Of a stretch of 64,000 bases of DNA, positions 1 to 60,270 are shown piece after piece. Source of the DNA: Candidatus Nanohaloarchaea archaeon (GTDB taxonomy: Archaea > Nanohalarchaeota > Nanosalinia > Nanosalinales > Nanosalinaceae); contig JBEQBC010000001.1 of the NCBI GenBank assembly GCA_041640035.1, positions 96,001 to 160,000 on the forward strand. The letters are read 5' to 3'. Every line of letters starts with the position of its first letter. Within the stretch, counting starts at the first letter, position 1. The position numbers were made by a program, and so were the translations under genes. Under the pieces are notes generated by a model that was given only the letters and a program-made list of their open reading frames with translations, made no database searches and had not been told where the DNA came from.

Positions 1-381
1 ACACAGAGACTGGGAACTGAACCACCTTACCAGAACGAATTATACGACAACTATGAACCCGGAATCTATGTCGATGTAGTAAGCGGAGAACCGCTTTTCT
101 CCAGCAAAACCAAGTTCAAATCCAATACAGGATGGCCAAGCTTCTACAAACCGCTCGAACCCTCAAACATCGTAGAGAAAAGAGATCCGGGTCCTCTTGG
201 ATACAGGGTCGAGGTAAGAAGCAAACACGCAGACAGCCATCTTGGACACCTGTTTGAAAACCCGAATACGCCGACAGGACTGAGATACTGTCTCAACAGC
301 GCAGCACTAGAGTTCATACCCGCGGAAGAACTTGAGGAAGAGGGCTACGGACAGTACACGGACTTGTTCGAAGAGGCATGA
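1..381 (+). CDS. msrB: Peptide-methionine (R)-S-oxide reductase MsrB (5'-truncated by window edge)
   Basis: Frame +1 read by hand (absent from ORF track): GTEPPY..GIYVDVVSGEPLFSS..TGWPSF..EVRS..DSHLGHLF..GLRYCLNSAALEF; stop TGA at 379-381. Confidence 0.93.
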   Translation, partial: TQRLGTEPPYQNELYDNYEPGIYVDVVSGEPLFSSKTKFKSNTGWPSFYKPLEPSNIVEKRDPGPLGYRVEVRSKHADSHLGHLFENPNTPTGLRYCLNSAALEFIPAEELEEEGYGQYTDLFEEA

Positions 382-386
382 AATAA

Positions 387-929
387 ATGAACCTCTCAAT
401 AATCCAGCTCTCTGGCATAGTAAGTGCCTCAACTATGACGGCATTGATGATCTGGTCGGTTCTAATCGACCGCTTCAGGTTCTGGCCGCCAGGAGAAAGA
501 AACCTTAGATGGTTCACATACTGGACATTAGCAACTGTAAATACGCTGTCAATCGTCGCAATAATTCTTCAGTCTTTCAGCTTCTCTTCATTAGGTTTCT
601 ACAGACTCTTCACGCTTCTCTTGATTTTCGTAGGTGTACTGATATCGGCTAAAGCGATAAGAACTCTTGGTGCTGAGCAGACCTCAGGTATCGACGGTGA
701 ACTGGTTAATAACGGTTTATACAGCTACAGCCGGAATCCACAGGTTGTCGGAAATCTCATCAGTGTTGTAGGCTTTGTTCTCTACACTTCTACGACCGCT
801 TCCATGGTGATCGGAGTCCTTGCATCTACCTGGCTTATCTCAATGGTTTTTTCCGAAGAAAAGAAGCTGAAGGAAGACTTGGGAATTTCTTACAAAGAGT
901 ATCTTGAAGAGGTTCCCCGGTTTATCTAA
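387..929 (+). CDS. ICMT/PEMT-family membrane methyltransferase
   Basis: Hydrophobic; LVNNGLYSYSRNPQ and EEKKL..LG..Y.EY...VPRFI motifs. Confidence 0.8.
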   Translation: MNLSIIQLSGIVSASTMTALMIWSVLIDRFRFWPPGERNLRWFTYWTLATVNTLSIVAIILQSFSFSSLGFYRLFTLLLIFVGVLISAKAIRTLGAEQTSGIDGELVNNGLYSYSRNPQVVGNLISVVGFVLYTSTTASMVIGVLASTWLISMVFSEEKKLKEDLGISYKEYLEEVPRFI

Positions 930-2059
930 GTCAGATCCTCTCGCCAGTAACTCCACGCCATTCCGACAGTGGCAAACGCAGCAAGAACAAAGCTTGCCTG
1001 GAAACCGGTCCTCAGATCTGTTAGAGTGTAGAAGCTGTACAGTGTGAGCACCGTGAGTACATTTCCGACTGATACAAACATCTTCCTCAATGTGTAGAAC
1101 TCCAGTATATCGGTTTTCTCCGCCTCATCCGCAAAGCTCGAGTAGATCGGTACATGGTATATCTGGAAGAATATCCCGCTGATAAATGAAACCACGAAAA
1201 CCTGGAATGGAGTTACAAGCAGCCCTCTGGCTAGGTAGGATGCGGCCGCTCCTGTACAACCTATCGCTACGAAAACCTTCTTGTTGATGTTCGATGCATA
1301 TTTTCCGACCAGCAGTCCAGTTGCAACGAACCCCAGGCTGTCAAGTGCTCTGGCGCCTCCAACATCGATTGAGCCGCCGATGATCATGTAAACGAATAGA
1401 CCAAAGATCGCTACCGCTGTGTTCGCTTGGACACCTCTTGCTATGAAAAGTGGAACTGTCTTAAGGTACTCTTTGCCTAGAAGGTTTTTCAGGTCGTAAT
1501 CCATAGAGTCTCTGTGGTCCTCGGACCTCATCAGTGGTATCACGGAAAGCAGGAGGATGAATACTGTTACCATCATGAGTTCTCCGAATCCCAGTCCTGC
1601 GAAGATAAGTCCTCCGGCCAGTGGTGCTATTATACGGGAGATATTAGGGAGGCTGAGCATCTTACCGGAATCGCTGGACCTGTTTTCGTCTTCAGAGTCT
1701 ACTGCGAACTCTGAGTTCATGCTCAGGTTGTGGAAAAGCCTTCCTAGGTTGTACATCAGTGAGGAGAAGATTATCAGGAGTATGGAGAGGTCAAAGTATC
1801 TTATTGATGCAAGTCCTGGAATCAGAAATATGTATGAAGCTGCTAAACTGTGTTTGAATCCTATCCGTGCTACGATTCTTGAAACCGGGTAGGAAAGAGT
1901 GATACCTGTAAAACCGGAGATGATCAGGAAGAGTGCGGCTGCTGGAAGACCGAAACCTTCTGAAACAATGTAGACTGGTATAAATACTCCTATCAGTGAA
2001 AGCGCGAAGTTCTTCAGTAGTTCGTATGCCACTAAGTTGTCTAGTTCTCTGAACTCCAT
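926..2059 (-). CDS. MFS transporter
   Basis: 377 aa, about 12 hydrophobic segments, RIVARIGFK resembling MFS motif A. Confidence 0.75.
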   Translation of the reverse strand: MEFRELDNLVAYELLKNFALSLIGVFIPVYIVSEGFGLPAAALFLIISGFTGITLSYPVSRIVARIGFKHSLAASYIFLIPGLASIRYFDLSILLIIFSSLMYNLGRLFHNLSMNSEFAVDSEDENRSSDSGKMLSLPNISRIIAPLAGGLIFAGLGFGELMMVTVFILLLSVIPLMRSEDHRDSMDYDLKNLLGKEYLKTVPLFIARGVQANTAVAIFGLFVYMIIGGSIDVGGARALDSLGFVATGLLVGKYASNINKKVFVAIGCTGAAASYLARGLLVTPFQVFVVSFISGIFFQIYHVPIYSSFADEAEKTDILEFYTLRKMFVSVGNVLTVLTLYSFYTLTDLRTGFQASFVLAAFATVGMAWSYWREDLT

Positions 2060-48394: not shown

Positions 48395-48440
48395 CAACCG
48401 GTCAATTCTTTTAACATTTCAGAACTTACTTCTACAGTAT

Positions 48441-51400
48441 ATGGCCGATTACAATCCGCAGAAGATTGAAGACAAGATCGCCCAGTACTGGGACGAAAAT
48501 AATGTTAAACAGAAGGTCCGTGAATCAACGGAAGGAAACGAACCGTTCTTCCTGATCGACGGCCCACCGTACCTGAACGGAAGCCCTCATGTAGGACATA
48601 TGCAGGGAAAGGTCATCAAGGACACAATGCTACGGTTCAAACAGATGCGTGGCTACGATGTCCACGACCAGGCAGGATTCGACACACACGGACTACCAAA
48701 CGAACTAGCAACAGAAGAAGAACTCGGAATCGAAGATAAGAACGAGATCGGAGACAGTATTTCTGCGGAAAAATTCATCAACGAATGCAAAGACAGAGCA
48801 ACATCTGCCAAAGATACATGGCAGGATGTCATGGAGGATCTTGCCGTATGGCAGGACTTCGAAGATCCTTACATGACCTACGACCAGGATTATATCGAGA
48901 CAGCCTGGTGGCTACTACAGAAAACAGATAACCAGGACCTGCTTTACCAGGGAAGAAAACCGATTCACTGGTGTCCAAGATGCCAGACCTCACTTTCCGG
49001 ATACGAGGTAACAGACGAGTACCAGGATGTAGAGGATATCGCAGTATATGTCAAGTTCCCGCTCGAGGATAGAGAAGAGAAAGTCGTTATCTGGACCACA
49101 ACACCTTGGACCATCCCAAGCAACATGGCGGTGTTCACGCATCCAGACTATGTATACGCAGTAGTTGACACCGGAGACGAAAAACTGGTCGTCGCAGAAC
49201 AGCTAGTTGACATAGTAATGGAGAAAGCAGGAGTAGAAAGCTACGAAATCGAAAGAACACTCTCCGGATCCGACCTCAAAGGACTCAAATACCAGACACC
49301 GTTCATCGACGATATACCAAAACAGCAGGAACTGGACGAGGAAGACGGAGTTCACAGAATACATAATTCAGAGGAACTCGTCACACTGGAAGAAGGAACA
49401 GGGCTGGTCCACGCAGCAACAGGACACGGACCAGAGGACTACGAGGAAACACGGCCACTCGGACTACCGGTCTTCTCACCACTCGACAGCGAAGGATACT
49501 ACACAGAAGAAGCCGGCGAGCTAGAAGGAGAAAATGTACTTGAAGTCGATCCAGAGATCGTGGAAAGACTGAAGGAAAAAGAACTTCTTCTACACAGCGA
49601 GCCTTACCAGCATGAATACCCACACTGCTGGAGATGTAAAACAGAACTGATTTACCGGGCTGCTGATCAGTGGTTTATAGAGAACGAGGAAGTCAAGCAG
49701 CGGATGCTTGATGAAAATGAGAAAGTTGACTGGATGCCGGATTCAGCACAGAAACGGTTCCACAACTTCGTATCGGAAAGCCCTGACTGGTGTATCAGCC
49801 GTCAGAACTACTGGGGAATCCCGATCCCGGTATGGGTATGTGAGGACTGTGGAGAATACGAGGTAATCGGCAGCTTCGACCAACTGGAGGAAAAGGTCGA
49901 AGAGCTACCTGAAGACTTCGATCCCCACAAGCATGTGGTAGATGATATCTCATGGAGCTGTGAATGTGGAGGAGAGAAGGAAAGAATACCTGACATATTC
50001 GATGTATGGTACGACTCAGGTATCGCACCTTTCGCCTCACTGCATTATCCTTTCGAGGAGCAGCCTTTCGAGGATATGTGGCCGATGGACTTCATTACTG
50101 AAGCATCAGATCAGATCCGTGGATGGTTCTACCACCTGATGTTCGCAGGAATCCTAGGATTCGACGAAAAACCATACGAGAAAATTCTTTTCCAGGGCTA
50201 TGTACTTGACGCAGAAGGAGAGAAGATGAGCAAAAGCCTAGGAAATGTAGTAGATCCAGCCGACCAGCTGGAGGAGTACGGAGCAGATCTACCACGTTTC
50301 TACCAATTACGACTCGCTCCTCCATGGGAACAGAAGAACTACGATGAAACAGAGATTGAGGAAGAGATCTACCGATTAATGTCTGTCTTCTGGAACACCA
50401 AAGAGTTCTACACCACATATGTAGACGAAAAACCAGAAGAACCAAACCAGCTTGAAGTTGAAGACGAATGGGTTCTCTCACGAATCAACTCGATCACGGA
50501 GATGGCTCCAGAGAAGGTAAACGAGGGAAGATTCCACGAAATCACCCGTGAACTGGAAGAGTTCATCCTCAACGACCTATCACGATGGTATGTCAAAAAA
50601 GTCCGTAGCCGAGTCAAGCAAGGCGATGAAAAAGCACAGTGGACACTAGGAACAGTACTTGAACAACTGAACAAGCTGATGGCGCCATTCACACCGTACA
50701 TAACAGAAAGAGTGTACCAGGACCTGGAAGACGGAGTATCCGTACACCAAGAACAGTATCCAGAACCAGAAGAACGGTTCATCGATGAAGACCTCGAATG
50801 GTACATGGAGCTTTCCCGCGAGATTGTGGAGAAAGCGAACAAACTGCGGGACGAAGAAGAGTACAACCTGCGCTGGCCAGCCAAAAGACTGGTTATTTCA
50901 ACAGATGAAGAAACCGAAGAAGGACTGAAACCGTTGCTTGACCTGATTGAGGACATGGTCAATGTGAAATCCATAGAGTATGGTGAAGTAGCATCCCGAC
51001 TATCCGCCAAACCTGATTACTCAAGCCTTGGTCCAAAGTTCGGAGGTTCAGCTGATGAAGTAGCAACCAAGATAGAAGGCCTGGAACACGACCAGGTAGA
51101 GCAGCTCCGGGACATCGGAGAGATAGAGATCGACGGCTACGATGTAACTCTCGACGATGTAGAAGTCCGCAGCGAGACACGAGGCGATGCACACAGTAAA
51201 AGCTTCGAGGCGGGTGAGGTATTCCTTGACTTGGAGGAAACAAGTGAACTTGTCGAGGAAGCGTTCGTCAGTGAAGTCATCCGTGCGATCCAGGAGAAGC
51301 GGAAAGAAGCAGGTCTGGAAGTACATGACAGGATAAAGCTGTCCTTCCAAGGAGAACAGGAAGTACTGGAGCAACACCTCGAAGATGTTGAAAGCCGTAT

Positions 51401-53279: not shown

Positions 53280-54695
53280 TCACCCTTTGAACCATTCAGA
53301 GCCGTCTTCAGAGTCCTCTATCTCGAAACCAAGTTCCTGCAACCGGTCACGGATCAGGTCACTTGTCTCGTAATCCTCCTCTTCACGAGCCTCATCCCTC
53401 AGCTCGATTAGTTTATCAGCAAGAGAGGACTCCTCCTCTGATATCTCGGGATTTACATCTACTCCGAGGATGCCGAAAAGCTCTTCCAGGGTCTCAGCGA
53501 CTTCCTCGCCAGGTTTTTCTCCTTTCTCGATGCTGGAGTTAACCTGTTTAACGAACTTCATCAACGCCTGTTTCGCTCTCGCTGTGTTCAGGTCGTCATC
53601 CATCTCTTCCTCAAAACTTTCTCTCACCGTTTCTGTATCTATATCGGCGTCGCCAGGATTTCTCCTGATTTTCTGTACCGTGGTTCTGACCTTTTCCAGC
53701 TCCTTCTCAGCTTTTTCAAGTCCTTCGATACTGAAATCGCTTTCAGTACGGTAATGAGTGCTGATTAGGTACAGCCGGATTACATCTCCGGAGAAACCTT
53801 TTTCCAGAAGTTCTCTAACTGTGTAGAAGTTGCCTTCACTTTTACTCATCTTTTCTCCTTCGACCTGGATGAACTCGTTGTGAAGCCAGTATTTTGCCTG
53901 TCCTTCTCCGCTTGCCGCGAATGCCTGTGCGCGTTCATTCGGGTGGTGTGGGAAGATATGGTCTTTTCCTCCGGCGTGGATATCGAACAGGTCTCCAAGG
54001 TACTTCTGGCTCATGACAGAACATTCGATATGCCAGCCCGGGTAGCCGACTCCCCACGGGCTCTCCCATTTCATCAGGTGGTCTTCGTCTGCGTTGATCC
54101 ATAATGCGAAGTCGTACTGATTTCTCTTATCGCTGTCGTGTTCTACACGGGCTTCGGCTTCTTCCTTCAACTGTTCTAGGTCCTTGTTCGCCATCTCACC
54201 GTACGGATAGTCTTCCGCGAATTTCTCCACATCGAAGTAGACATTGCCGTCGACCTCGTAGCCGTAACCGTTCTCTATTATCTTTTCAACATAATGAATC
54301 ATTTCGTTGATGTGGCCGGTGGCGCGAGGCATGATATCCTGCCGTGGGACATTGATCGCCTGTGTGTCTTCGAAGTATCTTTCTATCTGGTCTTCTACCA
54401 GTTCCATAGGCTCTAATCCCATCTCTTTAGCTCGTTTCTCGACCTTGTCCTCTCCCTGATCTCCATCATCTGTCAGGTGTCCTACATCGGTGATGTTCTG
54501 GATATGCCGGACCTTGTAGCCTTTCCACCGTAGGTACCGTGTCAGTGTGTCCCATGCTGTGTAGGCTTTGGCGTTTCCGATATGCAGGTCGTCGTAGATT
54601 GTCTGCCCGCAGCTGTAGAACCGTACTTTTCCTTCTTCTATAGGTTTGAATTCTTCTTTCTCCCGTGTCAGCGTATTGAATAGCTTTAAAGTCAT
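53280..54695 (-). CDS. cysS: Cysteine--tRNA ligase
   Basis: YSCGQT.Y..HIGN, NITDV, DFALW, GYPGWHIECS, HAGGKDH.FPHH.NE, KMSKS. Confidence 0.97.
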   Translation of the reverse strand: MTLKLFNTLTREKEEFKPIEEGKVRFYSCGQTIYDDLHIGNAKAYTAWDTLTRYLRWKGYKVRHIQNITDVGHLTDDGDQGEDKVEKRAKEMGLEPMELVEDQIERYFEDTQAINVPRQDIMPRATGHINEMIHYVEKIIENGYGYEVDGNVYFDVEKFAEDYPYGEMANKDLEQLKEEAEARVEHDSDKRNQYDFALWINADEDHLMKWESPWGVGYPGWHIECSVMSQKYLGDLFDIHAGGKDHIFPHHPNERAQAFAASGEGQAKYWLHNEFIQVEGEKMSKSEGNFYTVRELLEKGFSGDVIRLYLISTHYRTESDFSIEGLEKAEKELEKVRTTVQKIRRNPGDADIDTETVRESFEEEMDDDLNTARAKQALMKFVKQVNSSIEKGEKPGEEVAETLEELFGILGVDVNPEISEEESSLADKLIELRDEAREEEDYETSDLIRDRLQELGFEIEDSEDGSEWFKG

Positions 54696-54701
54696 TTTAG
54701 T

Positions 54702-54782
54702 TCAGCTCCGAGCAGTGATATATCTAGGTTTAGAAGTCGCAGGTTTTCAAATGTGCCGTGGACAAAAACGATCACTGCTCAT
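54702..54782 (-). promoter_or_regulatory. cysS leader hairpin (10-bp GAGCAGTGAT/ATCACTGCTC) abutting GGAGCTGA SD
   Basis: Perfect inverted repeat 54771-54780 / 54710-54719; SD-like 54709-54702. Confidence 0.6.
54747..54782 (-). CDS. Putative leaderless leader peptide MSSDRFCPRHI upstream of cysS
   Basis: ATG 26 nt after a TTTTAAC box (same spacing as ileS); Cys codon 7; TGA at 54749-54747. Confidence 0.55.
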   Translation of the reverse strand: MSSDRFCPRHI

Positions 54783-54869
54783 ATACTTTGACTTTCTTCT
54801 CTTGAATGTTAAAAATCCTTTTCACCTGCGCAACGGTTTTTTATCCAGCTTAGAGTAAAAACTCTGCAA

Positions 54870-56243
54870 ATGGTTTTCCCCGCGGTTGAAGGATTCCAAT
54901 TGACAGGATTTCTGATGGAGAGAGGTATCGGCCTCGTCTACCTCCTGGCATTCCTAGTTTTCTACCGCCAGTACCCTGCACTCGTAGGAGAAAACGGTTT
55001 AGAACCGCTGAAAGAAGGAAATGAGATAAGGAAATACTTCAGTATATTCTACTACCTCCAGAAAGACTGGTTCCTCAAAGCCTCAGCAATAACCGGAGTA
55101 ATCCTTTCGACCATTGTTTTATCAGGTCTAACAGAGCTCCTTGGATATAATATCCGTATCATAGTATTTGTTTCTCTATGGATCCTGATCGTATCTTTCA
55201 TCAACTCCGGTGGTATCTTCACAAGGCCTGGCTGGGAGACGATACTGGCGGAAACAGGGTTCATCGCGATCTTCCTGGGAGGTTTATCCTACCAGACGCC
55301 GGATGTAGTTGTATGGATGTTCCGTTGGGTACTTTTCAGGATGATGCTAGGTTCAGCCATAGTGAAGCTTCGAGGAGGAACTGAGTGGACGGATCTGGAT
55401 GCGTTAAAGAATCATTTTGAATCGCAGCCCTTCCCCGGCCCGTTCAGCTACTACCTGAACAATCTTCCTGAAAAAGTACTGGAGTCTGGAGCTGTAGTGA
55501 TGCAGTCAGCTATGATGTTTCTTCCGCTCCTCTACTTTATGCCACAGCCATGGGCAGCGATAGCCGGTTTATTCACTCTTTTGATTCAGTTGATGATCTT
55601 CCTTAGCGGGAACTACGCATGGCTGAATGTAATCACATCGGTGCTAGTCCTGAGTACATTTGATGACAGTATAATATCGTCTTTGACAGGTATTTCTGCT
55701 GGATCAGCTGTTTCAAATCCTTTATCCGGTACAGCAACTTTGGCAGGTCTTTTGATTCTTGTTTTAAGCATCAATCCTGTGCTTAACTTCTTCTCTCGTG
55801 ACCCACATCAGAATATGAGTTACAATCCGTTGCATCTCGCGAACTCATACGGTGCATTCCCGGATGTGACAGAGAATCATAGAGAAATAATTATAGAAGG
55901 GTTTATCGACGGCGAATGGAGGGAATACAAGAATCACAGTTCTTTCAGAGAACAAGAGAGTAGAAATGTTCAGATAGCGCCCTACCAGCACATGATGGAG
56001 TATCTTATGTACTTCCAAGTACACGGCAAGACACCTGATGATCAGTGGCTGGATAAACTACTGGAGAACCTTTTAGAGAGCGACAAGAATACAGAGAGCC
56101 TCTTTGAATCAAAACCTGATAAAGATGACAATCCAGAGAAGATAAGAGCTGTAGAATACATTTACAGATTTGATTACAGTAAATGGGAAATATACTGGGA
56201 AAGAGAATCAGTTCAGGTTCTCAAACAGAAGTCAAGAGACTAG
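54870..56243 (+). CDS. Lipase maturation factor (LMF1)-family membrane protein
   Basis: RGIGLVYL.AF..Q...LVGENGL.P, GWET.L.ETGF, K.RG...W.DL....HFESQP.P, GNYAWLN, NSYGAF. Confidence 0.88.
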   Translation: MVFPAVEGFQLTGFLMERGIGLVYLLAFLVFYRQYPALVGENGLEPLKEGNEIRKYFSIFYYLQKDWFLKASAITGVILSTIVLSGLTELLGYNIRIIVFVSLWILIVSFINSGGIFTRPGWETILAETGFIAIFLGGLSYQTPDVVVWMFRWVLFRMMLGSAIVKLRGGTEWTDLDALKNHFESQPFPGPFSYYLNNLPEKVLESGAVVMQSAMMFLPLLYFMPQPWAAIAGLFTLLIQLMIFLSGNYAWLNVITSVLVLSTFDDSIISSLTGISAGSAVSNPLSGTATLAGLLILVLSINPVLNFFSRDPHQNMSYNPLHLANSYGAFPDVTENHREIIIEGFIDGEWREYKNHSSFREQESRNVQIAPYQHMMEYLMYFQVHGKTPDDQWLDKLLENLLESDKNTESLFESKPDKDDNPEKIRAVEYIYRFDYSKWEIYWERESVQVLKQKSRD

Positions 56244-59947: not shown

Positions 59948-60199
59948 GGAAAAAATTTGAGACTTGATTTTTACATATGTAAATATCTTCCATTGGAGGA
60001 TAGTCTACATACGACTCATTATGAAAAATAGTTCTCTTTTTGTGAATAGTCGGATTTACCTGTATCTTCTTTTTTGAAACTTTTTTGGTACTACCTCAAA
60101 TAATTATTTCGTCTGTTATTCTCAGAAATACAATTAGGTTATAATATCATCGGATGTCAGCCTCACAAACCTTGAAAACCTTAAATTCCGACAGAAGAG

Positions 60200-60270
60200 A
60201 GCCGGGACAGGGATTTGCACCCTGGTAGGCGGCTTTGCAGGCCGCTGCATAACTCCTCTGCCATCCCGGC
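60200..60270 (-). tRNA. tRNA-Cys(GCA)
   Basis: Reverse complement GCCGGGA/TCCCGGC + U73; arm GCGGC-CTGCAAA-GCCGC. Confidence 0.92.

Follow-up and report, generated by a model that had tools for sequence, protein, structure and literature searches.

Introduction

How is the supply of an aminoacyl-tRNA synthetase adjusted to the charging state of its tRNA in an archaeon? To our knowledge, next to nothing has been described of the way in which archaea adjust synthetase levels to the charging of tRNA. The question is raised by the 87 nucleotides (nt), beginning with a short upstream open reading frame (uORF), that lie before cysS, the gene for cysteinyl-tRNA synthetase (CysRS), in a 64,000-nt stretch of contig JBEQBC010000001.1 from Candidatus Nanohaloarchaea archaeon. 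We refer to this whole stretch as the window; all coordinates are positions in it, and the leader and cysS features all lie on its minus strand. The assembly comprises ~0.98 Mb in 24 contigs and encodes very acidic proteins, and a search for sequencing runs containing the cysS-leader locus listed DNA runs with hypersaline labels and no RNA run. An initial annotation of the locus proposed a Cys-sensing attenuator in which a ribosome stalled on the uORF would open a stem and free the cysS initiation region. In our analysis the amino-acid-specific sensor on a leaderless uORF holds up, whereas the stem does not stand as the core mechanism. Instead, with a confidence slightly above an even chance, we propose from comparison of sequences that the 87-nt stretch is a translated, leaderless sensor of charged tRNA-Cys that acts through a +1 slip of the ribosome and reinitiation at cysS.

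Results

The cysS leader opens with an ATG at promoter distance

Among 634 long open reading frames (ORFs) of the own genome, TATA-like hexamers peak at −34 to −28 before the first ATG (116 starts vs ~2–3 per position elsewhere). The ATG of the cysS-leader uORF lies at this peak distance, with its hexamer at −32. As the initial annotation had recorded, the box, its spacing and the start context recur at ileS: the box is identical, the offset to the ATG is likewise 32 nt, and the context AGTATATG is common to both. From this promoter spacing we infer that transcription starts at or next to the uORF ATG. The 11-codon ORF with TGT as codon 7, and the cysS ATG (54695) 87 nt beyond the uORF ATG, were also confirmed in the sequence.

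We compared this leader with its relatives, giving 23 Cys-type leaders in total. A TATA-like pentamer is found at −26 to −31 in 22 of the 23; in the exception, L035, a second in-frame ATG 6 nt upstream stands at the proper promoter distance. The start of the frame-0 peptide is conserved as MSS-[D/G/E]-[R/H/C]-F-C-[P/L], and variation within it is of the synonymous type (AGC/AGT, TGT/TGC and third-position changes in CCN). Three length changes occur between the ATG and the Cys codon (+6, +12 and an ATG at −6), each of them in frame. Because the ATG is at promoter distance, the indels keep the frame and the variation is synonymous in type, frame 0 is probably translated. The own leader holds one Cys codon and thus no tract of consecutive Cys codons; most relatives hold 1–3, with a second Cys two codons later in 10 of the 23, and six occur only in L214, which has an extended ORF tail.

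A stop-free +1 frame runs from the Cys codon up to cysS

The initial annotation does not include one invariant feature: beginning at the Cys codon, the +1 frame stays open until it meets a stop that overlaps the cysS start. Over the span from the T run to the gene behind it, the 23 Cys-type leaders contain 48, 2 and 45 stop codons in frames 0, +1 and +2, respectively, and both +1 stops belong to L035, 7–12 nt before its cysS ATG. When one leader was taken per genus (12), the counts were 24/0/24 (P = 3.5e-9), and the product of the per-leader shuffle probabilities was 2.3e-9. In the 14 leaders that stand before cysS, the phase between the two start codons is also conserved: the distance from uORF ATG to cysS ATG is a multiple of three in 13 of them, spanning eight lengths. 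Frame 0 ends 42–76 nt upstream of cysS in these 14 leaders. The +1 stop, by comparison, begins at +1 of the cysS start codon in seven (ATGA), at −2 in one (TAATG), at +7 in five and at −12 in one. Thus it falls within −12 to +7 of the start in 14/14 cysS leaders, and within −13 to +10 in 67/67 leaders of other synthetase genes (sister leaders, described below), a geometry suited to translational coupling. In Haloferax volcanii, according to the available portions of two reports, overlapping gene pairs are translated in a strictly coupled manner and a spacing of ~20 nt abolishes coupling (PMC6728339, PMC10666635). The open +1 frame points to a frameshift plus termination-reinitiation, and not to a stall plus stem melting.

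The two frames meet at the motif NNT-TTT-TGY, which is invariant in 23/23 Cys-type leaders. In the own genome TTT makes up 21.5% of Phe codons and CGT, the codon before it in the own leader, 12% of Arg codons; of 67 Phe-Cys dipeptides encoded in long ORFs, 7 have TTT for Phe. Rare wobble codons of this sort (CGU/UGU, UUU), placed after a leaderless ATG and before one cognate codon, recur throughout the leader family. A conserved shift site with a minor TTT codon, a frame 0 that closes early and a +1 frame that is conserved open are the features expected of a +1-frameshift sensor. We also considered whether the sensor codons are themselves rare codons and rejected this (GGA 52%, GTA 43%, TAC 73% and TGT 49%).

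Two elements in the leader resemble Shine-Dalgarno (SD) sequences. The 16S ribosomal RNA (rRNA) of four relatives ends in ...GGAUCACCUCCA (the own assembly has no 16S), and GGAGCUGA matches 7/8 positions of GGAGGUGA, the SD complement of these relatives' 16S 3' ends. The second element lies around a GTG found at −12 from the +1 codon in 23/23 Cys-type leaders, with GGTG at the same place in the sister leaders. This GTG allows a reading in which two ORFs overlap and no frameshift occurs: the +1 ORF would start at GUG 54775–54773 and be coupled to cysS, and the frame-0 ORF would modulate it by occupancy or competition. The constant distance of the GUG, in all Cys-type and all sister leaders, agrees with such a start, and both the coupling geometry and the avoidance of cognate codons described below would fit any ORF that is read under starvation. 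Yet the GUG lies only 7 nt from the predicted 5' end with no SD upstream of it, the promoter box is placed for the ATG and not for the GUG, and the +1-frame peptide is not conserved outside the shared nucleotides. Moreover, a ribosome stalled at codon 7 would be expected to cover the GUG, lowering cysS expression when it is needed. We regard this reading as fairly unlikely.

Cognate codons are depleted from the +1 frame

Depletion of cognate codons is expected under the proposed frameshift because the +1 frame would be translated when the cognate charged tRNA is short. We counted cognate residues in the +1 frames of each leader type and compared them with the +1 frames of the other types, reading the P values as upper bounds on significance. 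Cys occurs at 3/472 positions in its own type vs 67/2128 in the other types (p = 5e-4), Lys at 1/172 vs 135/2428 (p = 8e-4) and Tyr at 0/323 vs 64/2277 (p = 2e-4). Ser (26/402 vs 351/2198; p = 6e-8), Thr (17/570 vs 133/2030; p = 4e-4) and Val (0/52 vs 154/2548; p = 0.04) are depleted too, and the figures for Gly are 22/609 vs 93/1991 (p = 0.16). Together with the in-frame indels, this frame-specific avoidance of stops and of cognate codons suggests that the leader frames are translated.

Leaders of the same design precede other synthetase genes

The initial annotation had raised the possibility that other synthetase genes carry uORFs with cognate codons, and such leaders were indeed found for lysS, glyS, thrS, serS, valS and tyrS. 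We scanned the own genome for an architecture in which a box and an ATG are followed by a short ORF in frame 0, and a long +1 frame runs up to the point where a long ORF starts. Ten matches were obtained, seven of which precede synthetase genes. Six of these share the block ATG-A-NN-[G/A]GTG-N5-TTT (GTT in serS) followed by a codon, which is AAG for lysS, GGA for glyS, ACC for thrS, TCT (after GTT) for serS, GTA for valS and TGT for cysS. The ATG of the valS leader lies 24 nt further upstream, in frame. NCBIfam names the products of lysS, glyS, thrS, serS and valS as the cognate ligases. The match before trpS was rejected: a real gene upstream overlaps trpS, and the long +1 frame of this match is the C-terminal part of that gene.

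The block ATGANNGGTGNNNGTTTT (MKGG[RC]F plus a codon) matched 75 times in 45 of 70 genomes and 3/5 families, the 70 genomes being the same at the phylum level and at the class level; the reversed control gave 1 match. We examined 72 of the 75 matches (left out were G021:C19, G048:C19 and G049:C2), and 70 of these 72 precede the synthetase cognate to the codon after the T run: Gly 18, Thr 18, Ser 15, Tyr 11, Lys 6, Cys 1 and Val 1. The downstream proteins form BLAST clusters that map one-to-one to the codon, and cluster representatives were named by NCBIfam; L257, L267 and L275 were assigned by eye from truncated N-termini, and L266 (Tyr) matches TyrRS across only 26 residues. One further match, L278, lies inside a 57-codon ORF and was discarded as a chance match. 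Thus, the cysS leader is a member of a large synthetase-leader family and not an isolated case. The single Cys codon, which the initial annotation had listed as a weakness, follows the rule of this family, most members of which have one cognate codon.

In the 67 sister leaders with the gene in the locus, the +1 frame is open for 21–106 codons and 22 have ATGA overlaps with the start codon. Stops in frames 0, +1 and +2 number 176, 0 and 115, respectively, and frame +2 is free of stops in 7 of the 67. We give an even chance to the wider proposal that at least seven synthetase genes (Cys, Gly, Thr, Ser, Tyr, Lys and Val) are under one reusable, ribosome-based device in which a specifier codon governs a +1 shift.

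The family also bears on two readings that do not involve ribosomal frameshifting. In the first, the RNA alone would be the sensor, either by T-box-like binding of tRNA through the displayed codon or as an operator for a protein, and the reading frames would be incidental. T-boxes indeed follow the same logic, in which one specifier codon, constant in position and set in conserved surroundings, matches the synthetase downstream. However, an ATG at promoter distance always shares the frame of the sensor codon, indels keep this frame, and the frame-specific avoidance of stops and cognate codons requires translation. The only UGGN-like motif lies 5 nt from the codon and is invariant across tRNA types. 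An Rfam search of 54400–55100 at E up to 10 returned only two chance-level matches and no match to a T-box covariance model. We consider an RNA-only sensor very improbable, and the T-box-like form was rejected on these grounds. In the second reading, RNA polymerase would drop one U in the T5 run, bringing the ATG into register with the long frame. Loss of one base from the T run would join the two frames; the sister leaders, however, have only four T, and three in serS, and runs of four or three T are short for transcriptional slippage. Slippage also gives no reason for a cognate codon after the run, and we find it extremely improbable.

A further possibility is that the leaders sense stalling through another rearrangement, the openness of the +1 frame being unrelated. 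Either a mid-leader box would switch partners (5' AAGG/GUUUU vs the synthetase SD), or polarity or termination would occur at U runs. The box, AAAA[CT]C[TC], is present in 45/90 leaders vs 3.0 expected from shuffles, its CCUUC resembles the 16S 3' end, and U runs follow several leaders in tRNA context. No covarying pairing was found for it, however, and the avoidance of stops and cognate codons in one frame would go unexplained. In addition, a simple partner switch would have the wrong sign, in that a stall would free the box to pair with the SD. We judge a rearrangement of this kind quite unlikely. As a separate observation, the mid-leader box occurs in leaders of all amino-acid types, roughly as TCAAAACCTTCTAGA; it combines the anti-SD-like CCUUC with a stop in frame 0 or +2, never +1.

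The 10-base-pair stem is confined to the Cys subfamily

The perfect pairing of uORF codons 1–4 with a segment that ends at the SD-like GGAGCTGA, 6 nt before the cysS ATG, is present as the initial annotation described it. The duplex of the two arms has an energy of −17.3 kcal/mol, which was reached by 0/300 dinucleotide shuffles (z −3.6). Folded as a whole, the 111-nt leader does not stand out (z −1.4; 19/200 shuffles as good). Across relatives, the ATG, the Cys codon, the box spacing and the link to a tRNA-Cys gene are conserved, whereas the 5'/3' pairing beats shuffles in 13/23 Cys-type leaders. Some compensatory change is seen (GAGUAG/CUAUUU in L039 and GAACAG/CUGUU in L215). RNAalifold on a MAFFT alignment of the 14 cysS leaders, which splits one arm, gave a 7-pair stem with no pair changed on both sides.

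These data bear on the mechanism of the initial annotation, in which a stall at the Cys codon covers the 5' arm, blocks the stem and frees the cysS SD and AUG for direct initiation, with no frameshift. The strength of the stem against shuffles, the limited compensatory change and the position of the 3' arm next to the SD-like octamer in the own lineage agree with it, and a stall-and-stem mechanism of this type is proven for mycobacterial leaderless short ORFs with poly-Cys tracts, as far as the accessible text of the report goes (10.1101/834739). However, the stem never includes the SD or the AUG. The 3' arm lies 12–13 nt from the cysS ATG in the own lineage, 17–18 nt in another and 34–50 nt in three leaders, such that it is 17–50 nt away in 7/14 cysS-context leaders; in tRNA context it is far from any start. 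Additionally, none of the 67 sister leaders, which obey the same codon rule, has a 5'/3' stem at p<0.05 (median z +0.47), and stem opening accounts neither for the open, cognate-poor +1 frame nor for the conserved phase. Because the sister leaders do not pair, the stem is not the common mechanism, and we rejected general sequestration of the SD by the stem given its variable 3'-arm position. We consider the stall-and-stem mechanism unlikely for cysS. The stem, found only in the Cys subfamily, is an addition specific to certain lineages; it may mask the 5' AUG or dampen direct initiation at cysS once transcription of the leader is complete.

The Cys-type leader stands before cysS or before tRNA-Cys

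We searched for the Cys-type leader with the pattern ATGAGYAG..CRTTTTTGYC, the first 8 and last 10 bases of a conserved 22-mer. It matched exactly once in 17 of 50 genomes of the family (1 match overall for the reversed control), and a 3-mismatch search brought in three more, for a total of 20/50 genomes and 12/21 genera. The 3-mismatch search found no copy in the 20 genomes of the four other families. A metagenome scan with the 22-mer gave 6 loci, 3 of them new leaders; L169 and L170 were set aside as high-GC chance matches and L171 as a duplicate of G002. A scan of genome contigs with the gapped pattern returned at least 120 chance matches in unrelated bacteria, and L112 was the sole relevant one among the matches listed.

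The leader lies 81–141 nt before cysS in 12 genomes and 87–156 nt before a tRNA-Cys(GCA) gene in the other 8. Species of one genus can differ, the leader standing at cysS in G012 and at tRNA-Cys in G013. In 6 of the 8 tRNA-Cys-context genomes cysS follows 1.6–3.7 kb downstream on the same strand, and in the remaining 2 it is on another contig. ARAGORN confirmed the tRNA-Cys in L033, L034, L039, L174 and L215 and, as intron-bearing, in L036 and L040. The tRNA of L214 was labelled Gly-with-intron by ARAGORN and matched tRNA-Cys by BLAST, and the tRNA-Cys-context locus L037 ends at a contig edge. In five of the 8 assessable loci (L033, L039, L040, L174 and L215) the leader +1 frame is open through the entire tRNA-Cys gene. 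Its stop then lies 0–14 nt from the putative start of the next ORF (these starts were guessed), with ATGA or GTGA overlaps in three, and cysS lies further down. Thus the protein genes of the operon, cysS included, may be the real targets in these genomes.

One relative retains a decayed Cys leader. In L013 (G037), 150 nt upstream of cysS, it lacks the ATG and a GTG-started 8-codon ORF with C-F-C remains; this single copy has a mutated 3' arm, two +1-frame stops and a shifted phase (n = 1).

Several other arrangements were observed around these genes. In the leader-less relatives L006, L007, L014, L017 and L019 the promoter box stands ~26 nt before GCAGCTGA, which is 6–9 nt before the cysS ATG, and in many other relatives cysS begins 3–15 nt after a co-directional gene. 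Across the family, then, cysS seems to have either a short leader or coupling to an ORF upstream. In seven related genomes an acidic, leaderless-looking ORF of 22–30 codons was noticed 30–80 nt before tRNA-Cys: L177:1624-1713(-), L178:1358-1447(+), L181:1387-1464(+), L182:1390-1467(+), L188:1379-1459(+), L192:1378-1452(+) and L201:1657-1722(-). These have 4–7 Cys codons clustered near the end (C-G-C...C-G-C), often with a T5–6 run after the stop, and Pfam returned no family for the four Cys-rich small ORFs submitted to it. Possible identities are multi-codon Cys leaders of the classical kind or small metal-binding proteins. L192 has a promoter similar to that of the MSS-x-RFC leader L040, and L214 unites both ORF types in one. 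In L179, L187, L191, L193 and L198 an element 100–60 nt upstream of tRNA-Cys has a tRNA-Cys-like 5' end, a hairpin and a CTGC[AG]CAACC-like end, and may be a decayed tandem copy or a tRNA-like leader. Lastly, the tRNA-Cys genes of L036, L040, L203, L204 and L214 have introns of ~48–69 nt; they were missed by ARAGORN without its intron mode, and one was mislabelled as Gly.

Features of the locus

The features are collected in Table 1. The divergent neighbour of the leader (54870–56243, plus strand) encodes a membrane protein of the lipase maturation factor family (PF06762, E 5e-46; PF25179, E 3e-23), which is unusual for an archaeon.

Table 1. Positions of the leader elements, cysS, comparison genes and sister leaders.
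Feature	Position	Strand	Remarks
TATA-like promoter box (T-run + AACATT)	54805..54815	−	box TTTTAACATT at 54814-54805; hexamer start 32 nt 5' of uORF ATG
Frame-0 leader ORF, 11 codons + TGA (MSSDRFCPRHI), putatively leaderless	54747..54782	−	ATG 54782-54780; stop 54749-54747; MSS-x-RFC N-terminus kept in 23 leaders
5' arm of 10-bp stem	54771..54780	−	uORF codons 1-4; GAGCAGTGAT
GUGAUC, SD-like	54770..54775	−	conserved; complementary to 16S GAUCAC; GUG a possible +1-frame start
Proposed shift site CGT-TTT-TGT-C	54761..54770	−	E, P and A site codons; TGT (codon 7) 54764-54762, Cys sensor codon
+1 open stretch, 23 sense codons	54692..54763	−	GTC to TGA overlapping cysS ATG (ATGA); without Cys codon
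Mid-leader box region	54724..54747	−	AAAACCT 54747-54741; CTTCTAAACCTAG 54736-54724; weak copy of leader-family box
3' arm of 10-bp stem	54710..54719	−	ATCACTGCTC; directly 5' of SD-like octamer
SD-like GGAGCTGA	54702..54709	−	within 3' end of +1 frame; 6 nt 5' of cysS ATG
cysS, cysteinyl-tRNA synthetase, 471 aa	53280..54695	−	Pfam PF01406, E 7e-104
tRNA-Cys(GCA)	60199..60270	−	5.5 kb upstream of cysS, same strand; plain promoter, no leader in own genome
ileS promoter box and ATG (comparison gene)	48409..48443	+	box 48409-48418, ATG 48441; plain leaderless gene without leader ORF
Sister leaders before lysS, glyS, thrS, serS, valS (loci L222-L226)	G000:C1:242358, C2:64519, C5:33030; C16, C3	+ (C1, C2, C5); − (C16, C3)	own genome, outside the window

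Discussion

A proposed mechanism and the points against it

Comparison of genomes shows conservation, a sensor codon that matches the synthetase, a +1 frame that is open and poor in cognate codons, and a stop that overlaps the start; the route that we propose from these features is as follows. Transcription would start at or beside ATG 54782, and a ribosome would initiate there on the leaderless message. After reading MSSDRF it would have the Phe codon UUU, weakly paired, in its P site and the Cys codon UGU in its A site. With Cys-tRNA plentiful, it would continue in frame 0 and stop at codon 12, 51 nt before cysS and presumably too far for reinitiation. With Cys-tRNA scarce, the waiting ribosome would slip one base forward into the +1 frame, where UUU-U re-pairs perfectly. 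In a frame without stop or Cys codons it could then traverse the 3' arm of the stem and the SD-like GGAGCUGA, terminate at the UGA of AUGA and reinitiate on cysS. More CysRS would be made, closing a homeostatic loop. In the version for the whole family, a leaderless six-codon preamble would park tRNA-Phe on UUU and the next codon would be the sensor. A review (PMC5009743) states that +1 shifts are favoured by slow A-site codons and that frameshifting in the ermC leader activates the gene behind it. We regard a +1 shift with termination-reinitiation as the simplest account because it covers a frame 0 that ends early, a rare UUU, one cognate codon, an open and cognate-poor +1 frame, and an SD with a stop/start overlap.

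Several observations weigh against this account. The SD-like GUGAUC/GGUGG stands at a relaxed distance from UUU, with the spacing of normal initiation, unlike the 3 nt of prfB. The GUG conserved 12 nt ahead of the shift could let the +1 frame start independently. For tRNA-Phe to re-pair perfectly after a +1 slip, the sensor codon has to begin with U, as those for Cys, Ser and Tyr do; with Gly, Val, Thr and Lys codons, two of three pairs form. Slipping by −1 on the U run would restore full pairing, yet the ribosome would then enter a closed frame. Substitutions in the +1 frame show no codon periodicity (267/285/230, from noisy alignments with too loose an identity threshold), and the avoidance of stops and of cognate codons are therefore its only coding signals. 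The related genomes are not independent, such that the P values overstate, and the Gly leaders lack significant cognate depletion. The 8 genomes with a leader before a tRNA gene are not explained by the frameshift model. Lastly, one leader breaks the cognate-synthetase rule: L269 (G025:C10; leader at locus 1301-1284, minus strand) has a perfect MKGGRF leader with a His codon, yet it does not precede hisS. Downstream of it are an 80-residue AbrB-like ORF, 955-1197(-), and a 285-residue acidic ORF, 92-949(-). Apart from the chance match L278, it is the one exception.

Relation to known systems

Sensing of aminoacyl-tRNA by ribosomes on a leader ORF is known, as is regulatory frameshifting; their combination in an archaeon, as we propose it here, is undescribed in the literature that we found. 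In that literature, as far as its accessible text extends, we did not find archaeal T-boxes, leader-peptide attenuators, synthetase operators or leaders of this kind described. The portions available of two reviews state that no productive use of hungry-codon frameshifting was known in 2016 (PMC5009743) and that a single −1 case was the only demonstrated archaeal frameshift in 2021 (PMC8211752). If our proposal is true, the cysS leader would show hungry-codon frameshifting put to productive use in nature and would supply the first programmed +1 frameshift in a cellular gene of an archaeon. The family would constitute a compact, portable and reprogrammable sensor of any charged tRNA, in which one codon change switches specificity, found in minimal-genome organisms that are obliged to import amino acids. 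Its signature can be searched for in other archaea: a leaderless ATG, a shift-prone codon, a cognate codon and a cognate-free open +1 frame that ends on a start codon.

The bacterial prfB gene, in which release factor 2 regulates itself through a +1 shift, offers the nearest logic. In the text of the review available to us (PMC5009743), prfB has a short frame-0 stretch ending at a slow A-site codon that is decoded by the regulated product, a U-rich wobble codon in the P site (CUU-UGA-C, vs UUU-UGU-C here) and an SD-like element upstream; shortage of the factor raises shifting and hence its own supply, as we propose for the cysS leader. Unlike prfB, the slow codon of the cysS leader is a sense codon that would sense aminoacyl-tRNA, and the putative shift takes place in a separate leader in an archaeon. 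Its +1 product would be a throw-away peptide that delivers the ribosome to the stop/start overlap, and the spacing of the SD-like element is relaxed and not 3 nt. In ermCL, ketolide-induced frameshifting likewise activates a downstream gene. There the signal is a drug and the effect is the unfolding of a hairpin at the ribosome-binding site, whereas the cysS leader would respond to a hungry cognate codon, with termination-reinitiation at the overlap as the outcome.

Among attenuators, those closest in form are the mycobacterial polycysteine leaders (Canestrari et al., 10.1101/834739), which, in the part of the report at hand, are leaderless short ORFs with Cys codons before Cys-related genes in which pausing senses cysteine. 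As described in that part, they differ in having poly-Cys tracts, Cys metabolic operons as targets and a duplex sequestering the ribosome-binding site that is blocked (10.1101/834739). The cysS leader has a single Cys codon (1–6 in relatives), CysRS or tRNA-Cys as its target, a second open frame and a multi-amino-acid family. It shares with attenuators in general an upstream ORF with a cognate codon, at codon 7 in the own leader and right behind the T run in 70/72 sister leaders. Mutually exclusive RNA structures were not found: the stem is without SD or AUG, its 3' arm is variable, and it appears in 0/67 sister leaders. The enterobacterial pheST attenuator, with its pheM leader peptide, and its kin contain several codons for the cognate amino acid and regulate transcription through terminator/antiterminator hairpins. 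The cysS-type leader is like pheST in placing a synthetase gene behind an upstream mini-ORF with cognate codons, and neither several cognate codons nor such hairpins were found in it.

T-boxes are bacterial, untranslated leaders that bind uncharged tRNA directly. The cysS leader is unlike them in that its codon is in frame with a leaderless ATG and it has no Rfam match. It is like them in having one specifier codon per leader that matches the synthetase, and a scaffold shared across many amino acids. If the ribosome reads this codon as we propose, these archaeal leaders would be a functional counterpart of the bacterial T-box system.

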